From: Candidatus Nomurabacteria bacterium GW2011_GWD2_36_14
Lineage (GTDB): Bacteria > Patescibacteriota > Minisyncoccia > Phycocordibacterales > UBA9973
Direction of reading: 5' to 3'
Length of the DNA: 64,000 nucleotides
Assembly: GCA_000991405.1 (NCBI GenBank)
Contig: LBRL01000001.1
Coordinates: 145,547-209,546, forward strand
Shown here: positions 5,750 to 63,841 of the stretch, piece by piece
How the letters are laid out: each line of letters opens with the position of its first letter
Numbering within the stretch: position 1 is the stretch's first letter
Position numbers and translations under genes: made by a program
The notes under the pieces: generated by a model
The model's input: only the letters and a program-made list of their open reading frames with translations
What the model was told of the DNA's origin: nothing
The model's database searches: none

Positions 5750-6670
5750 CTAGCTCACTGATGCCATTCCCGCACTAATCTCTGATATCTCTTGGGTAAT
5801 ACTTGCCTGGCGAGCCTTGTTGAATACCAATGTCAGATCGTCTATCATTTCTCCTGCAGCTTCCGAGGCATTCTTCATGGCCATCATTCTACTGGACTGT
5901 TCCGATGCGCTCGACTCGAGTATCATGTGGTATATCTGCATTCGGACTAATTTCTCTGCAAGTGATTCTATAATTTCGTTCATATCCCCCTCAAAGATGT
6001 ATGGAATTGGTTGTTTGTTCGTATCTAGCATTTCCATCTTTTTATTTTCACCTAGTCTTTCAATCAATTTCTTTAACTCTAGTTGTTGAATTGGTAGGAT
6101 TTGTTTTACTCGGGGTTTTTGATTTAGGGCCGACACAAAGTCTGTATAAGCAATATAAACTTTATTGTATTTAGTTGATTTAAATTCATCTATAATCATT
6201 TTCGACATAGGTAGAACATCCGAGAGGTTACTATTGTCGGGAAGATCAAGGAATGAAGCAGTGACATTTTGTCCAGTTCTTCGCATTGCATTGTCCCCCT
6301 TCTTTCCAATTGAAATAATGTCTACGTTAGATGTGTCAATTTCCCTTAAGGAAAGAATGGACTTTTTAATTATTTGAGAATTATATGCTCCACAAAGGCC
6401 ACCATTGGAAGTAATCAGAACAAACAATGTTTTATCTACTTTGTTTTTTGTTTCTTTGTGACCGTTAAAGAATGGCTGATCGATATCTCCCATTCTTTCA
6501 GATAAGGAAGTCAAAAGTTCCCAAGAATAGTTCGCATAAAGACGAGAAGAAAGAGCCTTGGAGATAGCACGCTTCATCTTCGAAGCTGCTACGAGTTCCA
6601 TCGCTTTTGTAATCTTCTTTGTGTTCTTCACACTCTTTATTCTTTGTTTTATTTCTTTTGTACCGGCCAT
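5750..6670 (-). CDS. atpG: F1 ATP synthase gamma subunit
   Basis: 306 aa with N- and C-terminal helices (MAGTKEIKQRIKSVKNTKKITKAMELVAASKMKRA ... ARQASITQEISEI). Confidence 0.9.
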   Translation of the reverse strand: MAGTKEIKQRIKSVKNTKKITKAMELVAASKMKRAISKALSSRLYANYSWELLTSLSERMGDIDQPFFNGHKETKNKVDKTLFVLITSNGGLCGAYNSQIIKKSILSLREIDTSNVDIISIGKKGDNAMRRTGQNVTASFLDLPDNSNLSDVLPMSKMIIDEFKSTKYNKVYIAYTDFVSALNQKPRVKQILPIQQLELKKLIERLGENKKMEMLDTNKQPIPYIFEGDMNEIIESLAEKLVRMQIYHMILESSASEQSSRMMAMKNASEAAGEMIDDLTLVFNKARQASITQEISEISAGMASVS

Positions 6671-6672
6671 AT

Positions 6673-8175
6673 TTATTTATTAAAACTTATTACGAATTCT
6701 TCAATTACTTTTTTAAGTTCAGCTTCACCTGCATCTGTCCACATCTTTGTGTCGGTAACTTCTTTGTAGAAAGTCTTTGCATTCTTTCCGGCGTACTCTG
6801 CGAGGCCTATTTCAAACTCTTTTATCTTTTCTACTTTCACTTCATCCATATATCCATTAATAAGAGCATAAAGAGTTACGACTTGGTCTACAGTTCCTAC
6901 TGGTGCGTACTGAGGTTGTTTCAAGACTTCTACAGCTCTCTTTCCACGTTCTAGTTGCTTCTTTGTGCCTTCATCAAGGTCTGAGCCGAATTGAGCGAAA
7001 GCTTCAAGTTCACGATATTGAGCAAGCTCAAGCTTGATCTTACCTGCTACTTTCTTCATAGCTTTAATCTGAGCTGTTCCTCCTACACGTGACACGGAAA
7101 GTCCAACGTTTACAGCAGGGCGAATACCCTTGTAGAACAAGTCCGTCTCTAGGAATATCTGACCGTCAGTAATAGAAATAACATTTGTTGGAATATAGGC
7201 AGATACATCTCCAGCTTGAGTTTCGATAATTGGCAATGCTGTAATAGATCCACCACCGTATTCTTTGTTTCTTCTACAAGCACGTTCAAGTAAACGTGAG
7301 TGCAAATAGAAGACGTCCCCTGGGTACGCTTCACGTCCTGGTGGACGACGAAGTAGAAGTGATATCTCACGGTAAGCCACAGCGTGCTTGGATAGGTCAT
7401 CGTAAATAATCAGAACATCCTTTCCTTGATCCATGAAGTATTCAGCAATAGATACTCCAGTATAAGGTGCAATGTATGCTAGAGATGCAGGCTCGGAAGC
7501 TCCAGCTGATACCATAATTGTATAGTCCATAGCGCCACCTTCTTCTAGACGAGTTTGTAATTTACGAAGTTTTGAGTCTTTCTGTCCAATAGATACGTAA
7601 ACACAAATCATGTTTTGACCCTTCTGGTTTAGGATTGTATCAATAGCGATAGCAGTCTTACCTGTCTGACGGTCACCAATGATAAGCTCACGCTGTCCAC
7701 GTCCAATAGGAATAAGAGCATCAATAGCCTTGATTCCGGTTTGAACTGGCTGGTCAACTGATAGACGGGTAATAACTCCTGGAGCAACTTTCTCAATAGG
7801 ATTTCTCTTGTCACTTTTGATAGTGCCTTTCCCATCAATAGGCTCACCCAATGCATTTAGAACTCTTCCTATTTGTGTATCTGATACTGGAACTGAAAGA
7901 ATCTGTCCTGTAGCCTTTACTTCTTCACCTTCATGAATTTTTGAAAAGTCACCGAGAATAATAATACCCACAGTATCTTCTTCAAGGTTCAAGGCCACAC
8001 CGCTTGCTCCACTAGCAAATGTCACCATCTCTGATGCTTTCAAGTCTGAGAGTCCAGAGACACGAGCAATACCATCAAATATTTCAACTACGTGTCCTAC
8101 CTTCTCTGACTTTGTGTCTGACTGGAATTTCTCTATTTGCTTTCTTAAATTTTCTACAATGTGATTTTTGCTCAT
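6673..8175 (-). CDS. atpA: F1 ATP synthase alpha subunit
   Basis: [19 protein letters not shown] Walker A, 500 aa. Confidence 0.95.
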
Positions 8176-8590: not shown

Positions 8591-9085
8591 TTAACTAATT
8601 TTCTTTATTTCTTCTAAAGCTTTCTTGTCGAAAGATTCATCCTTGTGAGTTTCTAGCAATTTCTCAGTTGCTTTCACTACTAGAGACACTATTTCAGTCT
8701 TGGCTTCCTCTATCATTTTATTCTTTTCCGATTCCAAGACTTTTTTGCCATTTACTATCATGTTTTCTACCTCAAGACTTGCACTGGCAAGCATTTCCTT
8801 CTTCTTCTCTTCGGCTTCCTTTTTGCCATCTTGGAATATAGTATGAGCTTCTTGTCGAGCTTTTGCTATAACTTCATCGTACTCAGCCTTTGTGCTTTTT
8901 AATATTTCAGCATTTTTTACTGCATCATTTAGACCACCTTCTATTCTTTCTGATCTTTCTTTCATTAACTTCTTAAGAGGTTTAAGTGCTAGGTATTGCA
9001 ATATGAAAAGAACAACTACAAAGTTGATAGCTTGGGCTATTATAATTTTCCAATCTATATGAAATGTCTCGATAAATGAATCCAT
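8591..9085 (-). CDS. atpF: Fo ATP synthase subunit b
   Basis: N-terminal TM segment followed by a long charged coiled coil. Position in the operon fits. Confidence 0.75.
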   Translation of the reverse strand: MDSFIETFHIDWKIIIAQAINFVVVLFILQYLALKPLKKLMKERSERIEGGLNDAVKNAEILKSTKAEYDEVIAKARQEAHTIFQDGKKEAEEKKKEMLASASLEVENMIVNGKKVLESEKNKMIEEAKTEIVSLVVKATEKLLETHKDESFDKKALEEIKKIS

Positions 9086-12426: not shown

Positions 12427-12504
12427 CCACCTCGCCCTTCGGGCACTCCTCCTCCTCCGAAAGGAGGAGAGGAATTCAAAGCCCCCTCCTTGTGGAGGAG
12501 GGGG
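12427..12504. repeat. GC-rich triple stem-loop spacer between rpmE and prfA
   Basis: Three hairpins: gccc-ttcg-gggc, cctcctcctcc-gaaa-ggaggagagg and ccccctcc-ttgtgga-ggaggggg. The 22-mer ccacctcgcccttcgggcactcc is the reverse complement of the one at 4189..4210. Confidence 0.7.
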
Positions 12505-12517
12505 TTGGGGGTGGTGG

Positions 12518-12745
12518 TTACTTTTTTGTTTTTGTTGCCTTTGCACCTGCAGCTGCACGCTTCTTGAAGCGGTCTACACGTCCTGCTGTGTCGAGAACCT
12601 TTTCGTTGCCAGTATAGAAAGGGTGGCATTGACTGCATATTTCAACACTGATTTCGTCCATTGTAGAACCTACAGGAAAAGTTGCCCCGCATGCGCAAGT
12701 TACGACTGAAGCACTGTTATATTTTGGGTGTGTATTCTTTTTCAT
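12518..12745 (-). CDS. rpmE: 50S ribosomal protein L31
   Basis: MKKNTHPKY...CxC...[10 protein letters not shown]: the full-length L31 signature with a zinc ribbon. Confidence 0.9.
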
Positions 12746-12772
12746 ATGTTTTGTGATATTATCATGATTTTG

Positions 12773-14149
12773 TTAGTTTTGCAATGGGTCGATCATAGTT
12801 TTCTGGATATTGGCGGCTTTCTTCATAACGCTGTCTCCATAGAAGCTATTGTTGGGCTTTTTGGTATCACATTTACGTCCTGAATAGTATCTACAAGCAG
12901 CATTTCTCTCACTGGTATAACTTTCCCCTTTTGCCCCTAAGTCTGTCAAATATATAGCCGAGGCTATGAATGCGTCCTTTGCATACCAAGGATCTGGGGT
13001 CTTTATCCCTAGCAAGTCTGCAATACGATTCTTCAACAGTACCCAAGTAGAAGGTATGAATTGTGCTGGCCCCATAGCTCCACCATATCCTGATCCACCA
13101 ATTGGACAAGATACAAGAGTTTTATAAGGGTCGCGTCCAACAGATGTAGTTATATCGAAAAATGGTTTTACATCTCGTGTGGGCTTCATAACATTAGCAA
13201 AAACTTTTCCACTTTTGGAGCTCACCCCTTGTCCTGTATCCATATTGGTAACATAGCAAGATCCTTGGTCAGTACCTAGGTTACTTTCCTGAGTCAGTAT
13301 GGCTAGCAAGAAGGCTGGGCGGATTCCTACTTTCTCTTCAGCAACTTTTGCATACTCTAAAGCTTTTCCAAAAGGAATTGCAGAAGCATCACGAAGATTA
13401 AAAAGTACAGCTAGGATTTCCGATCGTCGTCTAGCCTTATCGTCAAGCAATTTCTGATATTCCTTCTCTTTGTTTTTACTTATAGACAGAAGCTGTTGTT
13501 TATCCTTCTCACTTAGTTCAACTTGCTTCTTTGCATTTTCTAATTGAATTTTTGTATCGACTTCTTGATTCTTTTTTTGCTCGAGGATACTTTTCTCTAT
13601 TTCTGTTTCAGACTTTACGCCCCTTATCTCATCAACTGACTTACTAATACTTTTCTTCAGAGAAGAGAATGTATCAATGTCGCCATATGCTTCAGAAATA
13701 GTACTCTTTGATAGGACCAATGCTAGTACCGACTTATTGTCTATTTCTCTGTCTTTACGAATGAGCTGAGCAAGGGATTCCTTTATGTTATCGATTCTTG
13801 TATTTAAAATATTGATGGTTTTACTTTTCTCTACTATTTCTCCTCCCAACTTTTTGATAACCAAGCCCTTAGCTTGGATGTCGAGCTTCGACTTCTTGAT
13901 CTGAGTCGTAAGTATGGCTATGTCTCGTGAAAGTGAAGTAGACTGACCTTTCTGAGAAGAAAGCTCCTTCTGCTTAGCGGCTATTTCGTTCTCTAGATTG
14001 GCAAGCTCCTTCTCTAATCTGGCTCTATCTGCTTGAGCATTTTCAAGCTCTACGCCTGCATATGCGGGCGTCACTTGGTAAACGAAGTTACCAAAGGTTA
14101 AGCTAAATATAAAAATTAAAGAAAAAAAGTATAGAATGTATCGATTCAT
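12773..14149 (-). CDS. Secreted coiled-coil protein with a C-terminal MltB/Slt35-like lytic transglycosylase domain
   Basis: Signal peptide, then ~230 aa of heptad-rich sequence. The C-terminus carries LAILTQESNLG (catalytic Glu-Ser) and GPAQFIPSTW, which resembles the MltB GPMQFMPSTW motif. Confidence 0.65.
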   Translation of the reverse strand: MNRYILYFFSLIFIFSLTFGNFVYQVTPAYAGVELENAQADRARLEKELANLENEIAAKQKELSSQKGQSTSLSRDIAILTTQIKKSKLDIQAKGLVIKKLGGEIVEKSKTINILNTRIDNIKESLAQLIRKDREIDNKSVLALVLSKSTISEAYGDIDTFSSLKKSISKSVDEIRGVKSETEIEKSILEQKKNQEVDTKIQLENAKKQVELSEKDKQQLLSISKNKEKEYQKLLDDKARRRSEILAVLFNLRDASAIPFGKALEYAKVAEEKVGIRPAFLLAILTQESNLGTDQGSCYVTNMDTGQGVSSKSGKVFANVMKPTRDVKPFFDITTSVGRDPYKTLVSCPIGGSGYGGAMGPAQFIPSTWVLLKNRIADLLGIKTPDPWYAKDAFIASAIYLTDLGAKGESYTSERNAACRYYSGRKCDTKKPNNSFYGDSVMKKAANIQKTMIDPLQN

Positions 14150-25079: not shown

Positions 25080-25562
25080 ATGAATAAGAAAAGAAGATGG
25101 ACCGAAAAACAATTAGAAGAAGCTGTTACCCTTTCTAAAAGTTACAGAAATGTAATTAAACTTTTAGGGTTAAAACCTACGGGAGGTAATTATGATCAAG
25201 TTAAAAAATATATTAAACAGAGTAGATTATCTGCTGATCATTTTACTGGCAAGGTGTGGAATAAAGGATTAAAATTTCCTGATAGAAATTATATAGAATT
25301 AAAAGATATCCTAATTAAAGATAGTTCTTATCAGAGTCATAAGTTGAAAAAAAGACTATTCTCTGCTAGAATAAAAGAACCTAAATGTGAGATTTGTAAA
25401 TGGGCTAAATATTCTATAGACGGAAGACTCCCTTTAGAATTAGACCATATTAATGGGAATAGACATGATAATAGATTAGAAAATCTTAGGGTATTATGTC
25501 CAAATTGCCATAGCTTGCAAGTGACACATAGAGGTAAAAATATAAAAGCCCGGGTGGTGTAA
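25080..25562 (+). CDS. Free-standing HNH endonuclease
   Basis: ELDHINGNRHDNRLENLRVLCPNCHSLQ (H-N-H with zinc-binding Cys pairs). The last 15 nt overlap the 5' end of tRNA-Leu. Confidence 0.8.
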   Translation: MNKKRRWTEKQLEEAVTLSKSYRNVIKLLGLKPTGGNYDQVKKYIKQSRLSADHFTGKVWNKGLKFPDRNYIELKDILIKDSSYQSHKLKKRLFSARIKEPKCEICKWAKYSIDGRLPLELDHINGNRHDNRLENLRVLCPNCHSLQVTHRGKNIKARVV

Positions 25563-25631
25563 TTGGTAGCCACGAGAGACTTAAAATTTCTTGCCATTTA
25601 TGGCGTGTGGGTTCAAGTCCCACCCCGGGCA
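25548..25631 (+). tRNA. tRNA-Leu (anticodon UAA), type II with long variable arm
   Basis: GCCCGGG acceptor stem, anticodon stem AGAGA/TTTCT with loop CTTAAAA, variable hairpin TGCCATTTATGGCGTG, T-arm GTGGG-TTCAAGT-CCCAC, discriminator A. It is near-identical in layout to E. coli tRNA-Leu(UAA). Confidence 0.9.
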
Positions 25632-25636
25632 CAATT

Positions 25637-62039: not shown

Positions 62040-62150
62040 TTATTGTTTTTGTTTATGTTTAGGATTAGTACAAATAACACGGAGATGACTTTCCCGTTTT
62101 ACCATCTTACATTTTGCACAAATTTTTTTTACTGCTGATTTGATTTTCAT
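62040..62150 (-). CDS. rpmJ: 50S ribosomal protein L36
   Basis: Manual translation gives [36 protein letters not shown] with the C-x2-C...C...H zinc ribbon. It is below the ORF-track length cutoff. Confidence 0.85.
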
Positions 62151-62251
62151 ATTTTACTTCATAAAACGAAAGAAAAATAAAGGGCAGAAACCCTATATTT
62201 ATAACTTTGGTGTTACCGAATTATACTACACTATTTAAATAAAAAAGCAAG

Positions 62252-62320
62252 CCCCCACACCTATATTTTTATTGCAGATATAATCTGCTGTTTACAACTA
62301 TTAAAATATAGGTGTGGGGG
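62252..62320. mobile_element. MITE-like inverted-repeat element, copy A, flanked by a 4-bp direct repeat CAAG
   Basis: Perfect 18-bp TIRs cccccacacctatatttt / aaaatataggtgtggggg enclose an inner hairpin gcagat-ataat-ctgc. CAAG lies at 62248-62251 and at 62321-62324. The element abuts the infA stop. Confidence 0.65.
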
Positions 62321-62330
62321 CAAGCCCTCT

Positions 62331-62546
62331 TTACCCTCTTTTAATAATTCTACCCTTACCACCATATGGATCAAGCAAAACTTCAACTCTATCGCCTAGC
62401 AAGACCTTGATCCTATGCATCCTCATCTTCCCAGACAAATAACTGATGATGATTTTACCACCACCTACATCTACTCGAAAGAGTGTATTGGGGAGGGCTT
62501 CCGTCACTATACCCATAACTGTATTGTTGTCGTCTCTTTGATTCAT
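62331..62546 (-). CDS. infA: Translation initiation factor IF-1
   Basis: S1/OB fold: GIVTEALPNTLFRVDVGGGKIIISYLSGKMRMHRIKVLLGDRVEVLLDPY. Confidence 0.9.
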   Translation of the reverse strand: MNQRDDNNTVMGIVTEALPNTLFRVDVGGGKIIISYLSGKMRMHRIKVLLGDRVEVLLDPYGGKGRIIKRG

Positions 62547-62590
62547 TTCTAATGTGCTTTAATCATAACAAAAATTCTATTCTCCGTCAA

Positions 62591-62660
62591 CCTCCACACC
62601 CATATTTTTATAGTTTTCAACGCAGATTTTCAATCTGCAATAAAAATATAGGTGTGGGGG
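62591..62660. mobile_element. MITE-like inverted-repeat element, copy B, flanked by a 4-bp direct repeat TCAA
   Basis: TIRs cctccacacccatattttt / aaaaatataggtgtggggg (2 mismatches) with an inner hairpin gcagat-tttcaa-tctgc. TCAA lies at 62587-62590 and 62661-62664. The element is 45 nt upstream of the infA ATG. Confidence 0.65.
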
Positions 62661-62665
62661 TCAAA

Positions 62666-63841
62666 TTATTTAAGAATTATATTTATATTTTTCTTATCTT
62701 CTGGGAGTTTCTTAGACCAAAATGGAATTATCTTCACACTAGCACTAACTATAGCAGGATCAAGCTTGAATATTTCGGCAACATTGTTCTTGTTCTTTGC
62801 GACAAGTTCTCCTTTCAAGGCCTCAATATCTGGCTTCCAATTGAGAGGTAGATTACCTGTAAGTTCAAAGTTAAAATTATTAATATCTTTACCTACTATC
62901 TGCTCTTTATCTGTGAAGTTGAAAGATAAATCTGAGAGGTTGGGCTGTTTTATTTCTTGTCTTTCTTTGTCTCCTATGTTTGGCAGTAATTTACGAATGA
63001 TTGAATCCGACAATTCACTTTCTTTGAATATATAAGCACTGAGCGACCCTTTCATTTCAACTTTTGTATCGGGAGTCTTTGAAGAGATGTTGTCGCCTAT
63101 ATCATAAGTAAAGTTCATAGCATCAGGATAAAGTATGTACCCAACTGGTACTTGAGCGGAAAGTTTACGAACAAGCTTCTCTTTAAAGTCGGCTGTCTTA
63201 AAGTTTAAACTGGACTTTTCTTTGTCATCCATTAGATACACTAGCCCAGCCATACCTCCTTCTATGGGAGTCTTGGCTTTACCATAAATCTTTTTAAATT
63301 TATCTGTTCCCTTGAAAGAATTTATAGTGAATAATTCTTTGTTGCTATTATAAGCCTCCCCAGGAAGAAAGGCCGTGATACCTACTACCACTTGGCCAGG
63401 TATGATCTTCTTTGAAGAATCCAACTTATAAGCTGGTATTGAGACTGTTTTATCTGTTTTGTATGATACGCCTTTGTCGTCAGACACAAATGAGCCAGCT
63501 GTAATCTTTTGAGCCTTGGTACTACTGTATTCATTGTATAAGGTTATTTGTCCCTTAGCTTTGATTGATACTTCCTTGGCATTCGTAAGTACAATATCCC
63601 TATATTCTTTGTCAGAAACAATTACAAGCTCAAATGGAACACTTGTGCTAGGCTTCCCTGCTGTAAATTTCAAATGCTTTAATTCAAAAGTTTGATCCTT
63701 GGCTACTACTGTCACATTGGCTCTTAAGAACACAGTGGAGAGTAAATAAAATGATCCAACTAGAAGAGAAAAGATGAATATATCTAATAAAGTTTTATTA
63801 AGTAGAGGTCTTTCCCTTGGCATGCGAGGATCTCCACTCAT
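62666..63841 (-). CDS. Hypothetical membrane-anchored, Lys-rich protein; frame stays open to the window edge (possibly 5'-partial, true start beyond 64000)
   Basis: One TM helix (LLDIFIFSLLVGSFYLLSTVFL) then ~350 aa with no known motif. By manual translation, the 53 codons upstream of the annotated Met have no in-frame stop. Confidence 0.4.
   Translation of the reverse strand: MSGDPRMPRERPLLNKTLLDIFIFSLLVGSFYLLSTVFLRANVTVVAKDQTFELKHLKFTAGKPSTSVPFELVIVSDKEYRDIVLTNAKEVSIKAKGQITLYNEYSSTKAQKITAGSFVSDDKGVSYKTDKTVSIPAYKLDSSKKIIPGQVVVGITAFLPGEAYNSNKELFTINSFKGTDKFKKIYGKAKTPIEGGMAGLVYLMDDKEKSSLNFKTADFKEKLVRKLSAQVPVGYILYPDAMNFTYDIGDNISSKTPDTKVEMKGSLSAYIFKESELSDSIIRKLLPNIGDKERQEIKQPNLSDLSFNFTDKEQIVGKDINNFNFELTGNLPLNWKPDIEALKGELVAKNKNNVAEIFKLDPAIVSASVKIIPFWSKKLPEDKKNINIILK

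Follow-up and report, generated by a model that had tools for sequence, protein, structure and literature searches.

Are the two hairpin-forming sequences that bracket infA in Candidatus Nomurabacteria bacterium GW2011_GWD2_36_14 mobile DNA, and if so, what moves them? They lie close to one end of a stretch of 64,000 nucleotides from contig LBRL01000001.1, which was analyzed at its full length and is called the window here. An earlier note on this DNA had described them, from the letters alone, as two copies of an element of about 70 bp resembling a miniature inverted-repeat transposable element (MITE). Genomes of the candidate phyla radiation (CPR) or Patescibacteria are tiny and thought to be poor in mobile DNA. 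Our findings strongly support the view that both sequences, referred to as copy A and copy B, are real mobile DNA and belong to a MITE-like family with true target-site duplications. Taken as a whole, the evidence is probably best explained if they are internally deleted, non-autonomous derivatives of an element of 305-321 bp that encodes a small GIY-YIG nuclease. The parts of the two copies are listed below with their positions in the window; P2 and P3 denote the inner stems of the fold.

62252..62320, no strand assigned: copy A, a 69-bp non-autonomous element that aligns with 36 other members of 63-75 nt
62252-62272 and 62300-62320: arms of copy A
62274-62279 and 62283-62288: inner hairpin P2 of copy A
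62290-62292 and 62296-62298: small hairpin P3 of copy A
62248..62251: left 4-bp target duplication of copy A, CAAG on the plus strand and CTTG in gene sense
62321..62324: right 4-bp target duplication of copy A, CAAG
62591..62660, no strand assigned: copy B, a 70-bp non-autonomous element, inverted relative to copy A
62591-62611 and 62640-62660: arms of copy B
62613-62615 and 62619-62621: P3 of copy B
62622-62628 and 62632-62638: P2 of copy B
62587..62590: infA-proximal 4-bp duplication of copy B, TCAA on the plus strand and TTGA in gene sense, making up bases 1-4 of the infA -35 hexamer
62661..62664: second 4-bp duplication of copy B, TCAA

The sizes, the arms, the GCAGAT hairpin and the CAAG and TCAA flanks that had been reported for the two copies were all found in place. 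In copy A the arms are perfectly complementary over 18 nt, or over 21-22 nt if one mismatch is allowed. The two mismatches between the arms of copy B belong to a recurring family variant, CCTCCACACCCATAT, which is also found in L015, L025 and L065, and hence do not represent private decay. Both copies contain the inner hairpin GCAGAT..ATCTGC and a second small hairpin, GTT..AAC, and so adopt the fold of a three-way junction. They lie in opposite orientation, with their outer 28 nt (62252-62279 versus 62633-62660) perfectly complementary to each other. Folding energies are -38.6 and -36.5 kcal/mol, with z of about -8 against shuffled sequences. There are two copies within the window, and neither of them, at 69 and 70 nt, contains an open reading frame (ORF). 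The 18-mer arm CCCCCACACCTATATTTT has four matches in the 64-kb window at up to three mismatches compared with 0.02 in shuffles, and a search of the 64 kb with the terminal 10-mer returned the four arms and one chance match only. When the window was scanned against Rfam at gathering and at permissive thresholds, no family was placed on the copies and weak microRNA-hairpin noise was all that appeared there; the only hits at threshold were two tRNAs.

The positions of copies A and B, sites A and B in the following, were compared with those in relatives. L002, which was found by an exact RpoA look-up, shares its entire RpoA sequence with the window genome, while infA is about 90% identical at the nucleotide level. 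It carries neither copy, and at sites A and B the 4-mers CTTG and TTGA, respectively, occur once each. When each element together with one 4-mer is taken out of the window, the remaining sequence aligns with L002 colinearly and without a gap across both junctions, as expected if insertion duplicates 4 bp. No repeat copy was found in the 21-kb locus of L002, and L003, a JGI contig, is identical to the source sequence of the window (L001, from a metagenome assembly of the Rifle aquifer). Among the relatives examined at infA, site B is filled in the window genome only, which marks copy B as a recent, lineage-specific insertion. Site A, located between infA and rpmJ, is filled in the window and in L008, L040, L070, L122, L149 and L163 (InfA identity 77-90%) and is empty in L002 alone among the relatives examined. 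Its occupants are not the same throughout: L008 and L040 share a different variant of 79 nt and the element in L149 has the opposite inner orientation. Such a pattern of occupancy would fit a hot spot or long retention.

Further copies were sought with the exact 18-mer arm, as the earlier note had proposed. In a scan of one genome per species, 95 stretches matched, and about 75 of these had an inverted partner and came from approximately 37 Patescibacteria assemblies. The hosts of the family are labelled Nomurabacteria, Paceibacterota, Parcubacteria and Minisyncoccia, together with some metagenome-assembled genomes under the unconfirmed label Saccharibacteria. About 20 matches in cyanobacteria, clostridia and others were single arms, and about 17 such matches are expected by chance (2 x 596e9 / 4^18). 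The same arm matched at least 109 stretches in a scan of metagenomes, whereas viral contigs contained neither exact arms nor a close relative of the GIY-YIG protein. Pooling and deduplication of the genomic and metagenomic copies resulted in 157 distinct elements, which fall into size classes of 29-46 nt (n=16), 60-75 nt (n=75), 78-110 nt (n=14), 121-150 nt (n=44) and 305-321 nt (n=8). The G+C content of the host loci spans 27.6-55.6%, and genomes other than that of the window have 3-7 loci each by the exact-arm search.

Identical 4-bp flanks, of at least 13 kinds of 4-mer, are present in 90 of the 157 pooled elements. In the genome set considered by itself, perfect 4-bp repeats flank 45 of 82 elements compared with 0-3 of 82 in shifted controls. 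Insertion in this family thus duplicates 4 bp, and the earlier reading of the differing duplications as a sign of transposition is borne out by the empty sites in L002 and by the many copies with varied 4-mers. The observations that could have told against that reading went the other way: other copies exist, the flanks are not the same in all relatives and the 4-mers did not turn out to be part of a longer conserved motif. Short elements avoid genes, with 3 of 149 located inside ORFs of at least 150 aa, although such ORFs cover 71% of the bases. In L202, a gene of 658 aa is bracketed by two elements of about 127 nt (6552-6678 and 8640-8766), the same arrangement as that of infA.

The 305-321-bp members have the same terminal repeats of about 20 bp (CCCCCACACCTATATTTTTAT), 4-bp duplications and one intact conserved ORF, which has 84 codons in all eight distinct members of this class in the pooled set. 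The 84-aa protein matches the Pfam family GIY-YIG (PF01541) with an E value of about 1e-18 over profile positions 1-74 of 78 and has no other domain. A search of the PDB with a profile of 20 homologues found UPF0213 (1zg2, 1e-12; 1ywl, 3e-9), then SLX1 and then UvrC and I-TevI. Residues Y5, Y16, G18, R26, H30 and E62 are invariant in the 20 sequences, down to 46% identity. Between copies, the ratio of nonsynonymous to synonymous substitution rates (dN/dS) is 0.05-0.2. The 84-aa nuclease is under purifying selection and, with dS saturated and the terminal repeats unchanged, the ends have been kept far beyond neutral divergence. A protein search returned 465 relatives; the best 120 of these 465 are nearly all 84 aa long and their source names are almost all those of Patescibacteria groups. 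Clustering at 50% identity leaves only a handful of representatives of this subfamily, which form part of a broader set of 650 (E <=1e-10).

All GIY-YIG copies in the DNA examined are bounded by the repeats and measure 305-321 bp overall. As an independent test, six homologues were picked by protein sequence alone and their DNA was then inspected. The same terminal repeats were present in six of six, and five of the six had a perfect 4-bp duplication:

P0032 (L211-214): duplication CCTA, beside a tRNA gene
P0096 (L215): duplication TGTG, within TGTGGATAA
P0090 (L217-224): duplication TTGA, at TTGACA-16-TAGAAT before rplJ
P0002 (L225): duplication TTGA, at TTGACA-17-TACGAT before rpoB
P0029 (L228): duplication TTAT, then CCACAG
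P0143 (L227, 50% identity): repeats present, no duplication

Full-length units also stand directly against tRNA 3' ends in L046 (898-960; CTTA/ctgggaatcgaaccc) and L211/L212 (3283-3350; CCTA/tcgagatttgaactcg). A model in which the duplication is inherited as a sticky end carried from the donor was rejected, since full-length units show eight 4-mers across ten distinct loci.

The relationship between the unit and the short elements can be followed along their sequences. The full-length unit has the left end ..TATTGCAGGCTTTT.., the right end ..GATTTACGACTATAAAAATAT.. and, at nt 197, the fixed internal junction AAAAGCCTGCGTCGTAAATCATT, whose coding strand specifies the conserved NDLRRRL. P2 is formed by GCAGGCTTTT pairing with AAAAGCCTGC and closes about 170 nt, and P3 is formed by GTCGTAAATC pairing with GATTTACGAC and closes about 95 nt. 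A 70-bp MITE consists of the left end, the junction (GCCTGCGTCGTAAATC, encoding NDLRRRL) and the right end, while an element of 149 bp in L137 retains the first 26 codons. The stop codon of the ORF sits within the terminal repeat. Gene and element are interlocked because of this stop codon and because the NDLRRRL codons form the P2/P3 junction, and hence the MITEs are derived from the GIY-YIG unit.

The branched fold is conserved as well. When members of the 63-75-nt class are oriented and aligned, the arms are nearly invariant and arm position 19 covaries with its partner (T-A 20, G-C 10, C-G 4). In 59 of the 73 distinct MITEs, P2 pairs without a mismatch, and 38 different arm sequences are represented, among them GCAGAT/ATCTGC, GCAGGT/ACCTGC, GCGCC/GGCGC, GTAGGT/GCCTAC and GGGAA/TTCCC; P3 is shorter and less regular than P2. 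As single-stranded DNA the full-length unit adopts the P1/P2/P3 fold at -50.4 kcal/mol (z = -9), P1 being the pairing of the terminal repeats, and P2 covaries among full-length copies, too (GTAGGC/GCCTAC in L171, GCAGAC/GTCTGC in L212, CAGACTTCT/AGAAGTCTG in L191). The inner part is oriented 16 to 10 relative to the adjacent promoter and is thus unbiased, which makes it unlikely that the fold is constrained on one transcript strand. For the same reason, strand-specific insertion, whether at the RNA level or into single strands, was discarded.

The most frequent duplicated 4-mer is CTTG/CAAG (40 cases), followed by TTTA/TAAA (17), TTGA/TCAA (9), TATA (7) and TTAT/ATAA (6), with few cases of any other. 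Where a flank has TTG at offset 0 or 1, TAnnnT follows 16-18 nt downstream in 65 of 74 cases, compared with 7.8% of the control TTGs in the same loci (n=42,654), and flanks that start with CTTG or TTGA read as promoters of the sigma-70 type. The TTAT duplications are continued by CCACA or CCCCA in six of six cases, which creates sites like the DnaA box TTATCCACA. Of the 53 perfect TTATCCACA DnaA boxes in about 1 Mb, 13 are no more than 20 nt away from the end of an element where 0.33 are expected, an excess of about 40-fold. DnaA boxes abut element ends, for example, in L006 (6955), L036 (4157), L081 (1233), L133 (11546), L191 and L228 (4273).

Symmetrization over 79 non-tandem sites yielded the consensus G/YWWR/C, in which the slashes mark the edges of the duplicated 4-mer, the outer G reaches 57% and each of the four inner positions 91-95%. 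A palindromic target consensus is as expected for a symmetric 4-nt staggered cut. The -35 hexamer itself was rejected as the recognized target: the CTTG and TTGA registers are off by one base and the consensus is palindromic. In our reading, a preference for G/YWWR/C is combined with strong selection in compact genomes, such that mainly insertions at the upstream edges of promoters remain.

Tandem head-to-tail arrays with spacers of exactly the 4-nt duplication occur in L094 (1522-2114), L058 (3706-3953), L074 (1566-2020) and L036 (4161-4369). They mix size classes and include a full-length GIY-YIG unit. Runs of GGG/CCC lie immediately outside the duplication in 38 of the 157 elements. The tandem arrays suggest insertion beside resident ends; together with the G/C runs, they hint at a preference for sites that look like two element ends set against each other.

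At infA, both copies are located at the edge of a promoter-like site. On the minus strand, which carries all genes in this part of the window, their order is unknown gene, infA, rpmJ, rpsM, rpsK, rpsD and rpoA, and the features next to the copies are as follows:

62666-63841, minus strand: unknown upstream gene, 391 aa
62562..62590, minus strand: infA promoter-like site, TTGACG (62590-62585), 17 nt, TATGAT (62567-62562)
62331..62546, minus strand: infA, 71 aa, bracketed by copies A and B, Pfam match eIF-1a
62220..62250, minus strand: rpmJ promoter-like site, TTGCTT (62250-62245), 16 nt, TAGTAT (62228-62223)
62040..62150, minus strand: rpmJ, 36 aa, the first gene 3' of copy A

Copy B had been placed right after the stop codon of the upstream gene and a short distance before infA, and it does lie 5 nt downstream of that stop and 44 nt upstream of the infA start. 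Copy A, in contrast, does not abut the infA stop codon as had been thought; it begins 10 nt past it. The infA promoter-like site has a TG before its -10 and starts exactly at the edge of copy B. In the rpmJ promoter-like site, the TTG belongs to the duplicated CTTG of copy A and TAGTAT overlaps a TATAAT at 62220-62225. This is the -10-like motif that had been assigned to rpmJ-rpsM, and the predicted promoter to which it belongs is conserved in L002 and other relatives. TTGACG-17-TATGAT before infA is likewise intact in the empty L002. With both promoters present in L002, the elements landed on promoters and did not create them, and as a result of the 4-bp duplication both promoters were restored after insertion.

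L002 has a small terminator-like hairpin after infA, GAGAGG-GTAATG-CCTCTT followed by GCATTTTT, with the empty site A at its 3' foot. In the window this native hairpin is absent, and copy A followed by CTTGCTTTTTT stands in its place, which is suggestive of copy A now serving as the infA terminator. The proposal that the insertions may have uncoupled infA from the ribosomal operon is not supported, since L002, without the elements, already possesses a terminator as well as promoters on both sides.

Some smaller features of the same region deserve mention. The last infA codons and the 6 nt past the stop (62321-62345, minus strand; AAAAGAGGGTAAAGAGGGCTTG) form a near tandem duplication (AAAGAGGGT / AAAGAGGGC), and the terminator stem of L002 occupies the equivalent position. 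Between the rpmJ promoter and the rpmJ start, the leader contains a small hairpin, AGGGTTTCTGCCCT, followed by TTATTTTT (62181-62194, minus strand). It recurs with altered loop or stem bases in L002 (AGGGTAGAACCCT + TTATTTTTT) and in L070, L008 and L122 (cagggt....gccct) and might act in the leader as an attenuator of the rpmJ-rpsM operon. In L163, L040 and L149, a conserved segment of about 100 nt starting with ATGAATCCCGATAGAAATTTAACAA separates the infA promoter region from the conserved infA body; neither the window nor L002 has it. Between rpsI and grpE, L002 exceeds the window genome by two genes (12474-14049), one for an EamA-type transporter and the other for a protein of 216 aa that weakly matches a Y1 transposase (PF01797). 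At 25080-25562 on the plus strand, the window contains an ORF of 160 aa with a weak match to the endonuclease family HNH_3 that overlaps a tRNA-Leu gene (25548-25632) and may be another small selfish nuclease gene.

The earlier note had advised a search for a cognate transposase. By Pfam annotation, none is present in 76 kb of this genome, and the search around the copies covered about 1 Mb flanking the 157 elements in blocks of 8 kb. Repeat pairs 0.4-5 kb apart enclosed no autonomous insertion sequence (IS); all were neighboring MITEs, each with its own partner. The 904 ORFs around the copies were clustered, and the recurrent families comprised housekeeping proteins only (RuvA, RecR, RpsL, RplU, RpsM, UvrA). 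No DDE enzyme was found, and the sole autonomous-looking relative with the same ends is the one that encodes the 84-aa GIY-YIG nuclease.

We infer that this nuclease drives the mobility of the family. Whichever strand is considered, parent and MITEs fold into one common three-way junction. Its P1 is made by the paired terminal repeats, and in the parent P2 and P3 each close one half of the gene; removal of both loops from the parent gives the 70-bp form. The nuclease would come in trans from a full-length copy at another place in the genome or in the population. The enzyme would recognize its own folded or extruded ends, a notion that derives from its nearest characterized relatives, which cut branched DNA, and it would make the cuts. 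Insertion would proceed through a symmetric 4-bp staggered break at sites like G/YWWR/C, and the sites tolerated in compact AT-rich genomes would mainly be the upstream edge of the -35 (cTTGc, TTGAc) and the DnaA-box-like TTAT/CCACA. Copy B came to lie on bases 1-4 of the infA -35 and copy A on the rpmJ -35, just 3' of infA. Host repair or ligation would complete the insertion, the joining being left to host functions given the hydrolytic nature of GIY-YIG enzymes. A bolder version holds that the 305-321-bp unit is a self-mobilizing transposon that recognizes its own three-way junction or cruciform, makes 4-nt staggered cuts at G/YWWR/C and, along with its derivatives of 40-140 bp, seeds hairpins exactly at -35 hexamers and DnaA boxes across the Patescibacteria. 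It would then be the smallest autonomous transposable element known and the first cut-and-insert element driven by a GIY-YIG enzyme. We consider this version possible, with a chance somewhat short of even.

Several points weigh against a mobile element run by the nuclease or against parts of the scenario at infA. A perfect duplication is missing in 43% of the elements. The 76 kb of this genome that were examined contain no full-length GIY-YIG unit. GIY-YIG nucleases are hydrolytic, and we know of none that performs strand transfer. The view of the genomes extends over 8-kb blocks, and a DDE element with related ends could be located elsewhere in them. Site A is filled in seven lineages, which possibly reflects long retention and not repeated targeting, and the terminator role of copy A comes from a single comparison, that of L002 with the window. 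One might think of classical MITEs moved by an unseen DDE-type transposase, such as that of an IS with CC... ends and duplications of 4-5 bp, for which the GIY-YIG ORF would be a passenger or a homing-type hitchhiker. Terminal inverted repeats, a duplication of fixed length and a palindromic target are all hallmarks of DDE enzymes, the copies are oriented at random with respect to the target (16 to 10) and genomes were viewed in small blocks only. However, neither the 76 kb of this genome nor the roughly 1 Mb flanking the 157 copies contains a DDE gene, the ORF is interlocked with the element through the stop codon in the repeat and the NDLRRRL codons that form the junction kept by the MITEs, and the protein-first look-ups found the same ends in six of six cases, even at 50% protein identity. 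We regard such a transposase as unlikely, though it deserves to be kept in mind. Hairpins of the family might, on the other hand, be genomic recognition sites of a domesticated, host-serving site-specific single-strand DNase like Ssn, which might for instance police DNA that enters the cell, with their spread being historical or incidental. Ssn is a single-domain GIY-YIG nuclease; hairpin repeats flank its genes and are also dispersed genome-wide, and its describers remark on the IS-like architecture and propose domestication (PMC11893778). Repeat-bracketed genes are found here, too (infA and the 658-aa gene in L202). The Ssn-related motif is present in 0 of 157 elements, however, and the closest solved relatives of the 84-aa protein are UPF0213 and SLX1. 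Clear duplications, empty sites, tandem arrays and the recent insertion at site B show ongoing mobility; besides, the idea concerns the purpose of the nuclease, and a mobilizing activity would still be needed. We judge it improbable.

Two further explanations were considered. Vertically inherited, conserved regulatory hairpins that act as terminators or attenuators of infA-rpmJ and are not mobile would agree with the occupation of site A in seven lineages (InfA identity 77-100%), with CTTGCTTTTTT after copy A and with the lack in the window of the native terminator seen in L002. Yet both sites are empty in L002 with single 4-mers, site B is filled in the window genome alone, variants and orientations at site A differ among lineages, and dozens of species have the same sequence, with differing duplications, at loci that are unrelated. 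We hold this explanation to be highly improbable, and as the sole one it is refuted by the empty sites, the pattern at site B and the unrelated loci. Palindromes of the REP (repetitive extragenic palindrome) or REPIN type, spread by a RAYT (Y1/HUH) transposase, share with our family the character of hairpin-forming intergenic repeats, and in L002 a gene with a weak Y1_Tnp match lies 5 kb away. REPINs and IS200/IS605 leave no target duplication, whereas 90 of 157 elements have one here; the gene enclosed by the repeats is GIY-YIG and never Y1; and L002, the very bearer of the Y1-like gene, has no repeat in 21 kb. We give this explanation next to no credence. An IS1380/piggyBac-like origin, with its CC ends and a 4-5-bp duplication, found no support.

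The family has colonized dozens of CPR species by occupying promoter edges, the sole positions that are tolerated. Should the 84-aa nuclease indeed mobilize it, the nuclease would represent a new catalytic class for prokaryotic transposons and the minimum size of an autonomous element would fall to about 315 bp. Systems of the Ssn type would gain a demonstrably mobile relative, with a bearing on whether they are domesticated transposons. Copies of the family mark promoters and DnaA boxes in organisms without genetics, and a small nuclease that is structure- or sequence-specific and has a defined DNA partner is a candidate for use as a molecular tool.

How does the family compare with systems already described? 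In agreement with the earlier note, which had considered it undescribed, we found no description in the searchable literature, whose coverage is incomplete, under the repeat sequence, MITEs in CPR/Patescibacteria or GIY-YIG with repeats, and a large survey of prokaryotic MITEs does not mention Patescibacteria. The Correia elements of Neisseria are similar in being small and intergenic, in having terminal inverted repeats and a target duplication and in forming long transcript hairpins that can affect termination and promoters. They duplicate TA, typical MITEs derive from DDE insertion sequences, and to our knowledge Correia elements have no autonomous parent. Our family differs by its 4-bp (YWWR) duplication, its GIY-YIG parent and its covarying inner stems. 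With REP/REPIN-RAYT and IS200/IS605 it has in common an apparently conserved hairpin structure, a small single gene between repeats and dispersed short copies. Those systems use a Y1/HUH enzyme that acts on single strands, insert by a fixed tetra- or pentanucleotide and make no duplication. Here, in contrast, the target is duplicated, the ends are symmetric, the copies are randomly oriented and the enzyme is of the GIY-YIG type.

The catalytic domain is the same as in SLX1, UPF0213 and I-TevI. SLX1 is a repair enzyme that cuts branched DNA and needs partners, and its cutting of branched DNA fits an element with a conserved three-way junction or cruciform. GIY-YIG homing endonucleases have DNA-binding domains, act on one allelic site and show neither terminal repeats nor duplications. 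The nuclease domain of I-TevI prefers a C..G motif, CNNNG (PMC12663268), which is reminiscent of the dominant CTTG/CAAG duplication, although this is a resemblance only.

The closest described system, ahead of the Correia or REP elements that had been suggested, is Ssn. According to Chenal et al. (2025, Nat Commun, PMC11893778), Ssn proteins are single-domain GIY-YIG nucleases of 94 aa that cut single-stranded DNA beside the hairpin repeat NTS/SRM, and the arrangement NTS-ssnA-NTS resembles an insertion sequence; the accessible text presents no duplications or empty sites. Both systems comprise a single-domain GIY-YIG protein of about 90 aa (84 aa here) whose gene is flanked on both sides by hairpin repeats that also occur elsewhere, are scattered between genes and bracket other genes, so that the architecture is IS-like in each. 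In contrast, the SRM as given there, HGTCWYN(0-2)YYVSBRHN(0-5)WNVSBRGN(0-2)RNCYNB, matches none of the 157 elements and none of the 10 full-length units on either strand, and the family described here has true terminal inverted repeats of about 20 bp, 4-bp duplications, empty sites and MITE derivatives. Mobility was not shown for Ssn, and its hosts are mainly Pseudomonadati as compared with Patescibacteria here. With UPF0213 and SLX1 as the nearest solved structures, there are hints that the 84-aa protein belongs to a different branch from the Ssn family, cd10448, and random orientation along with symmetric ends would argue against a one-strand cutting specificity like that of Ssn. The family bears every structural mark of MITEs, and the enzyme with which it is associated is none of the known transposases, DDE or HUH.

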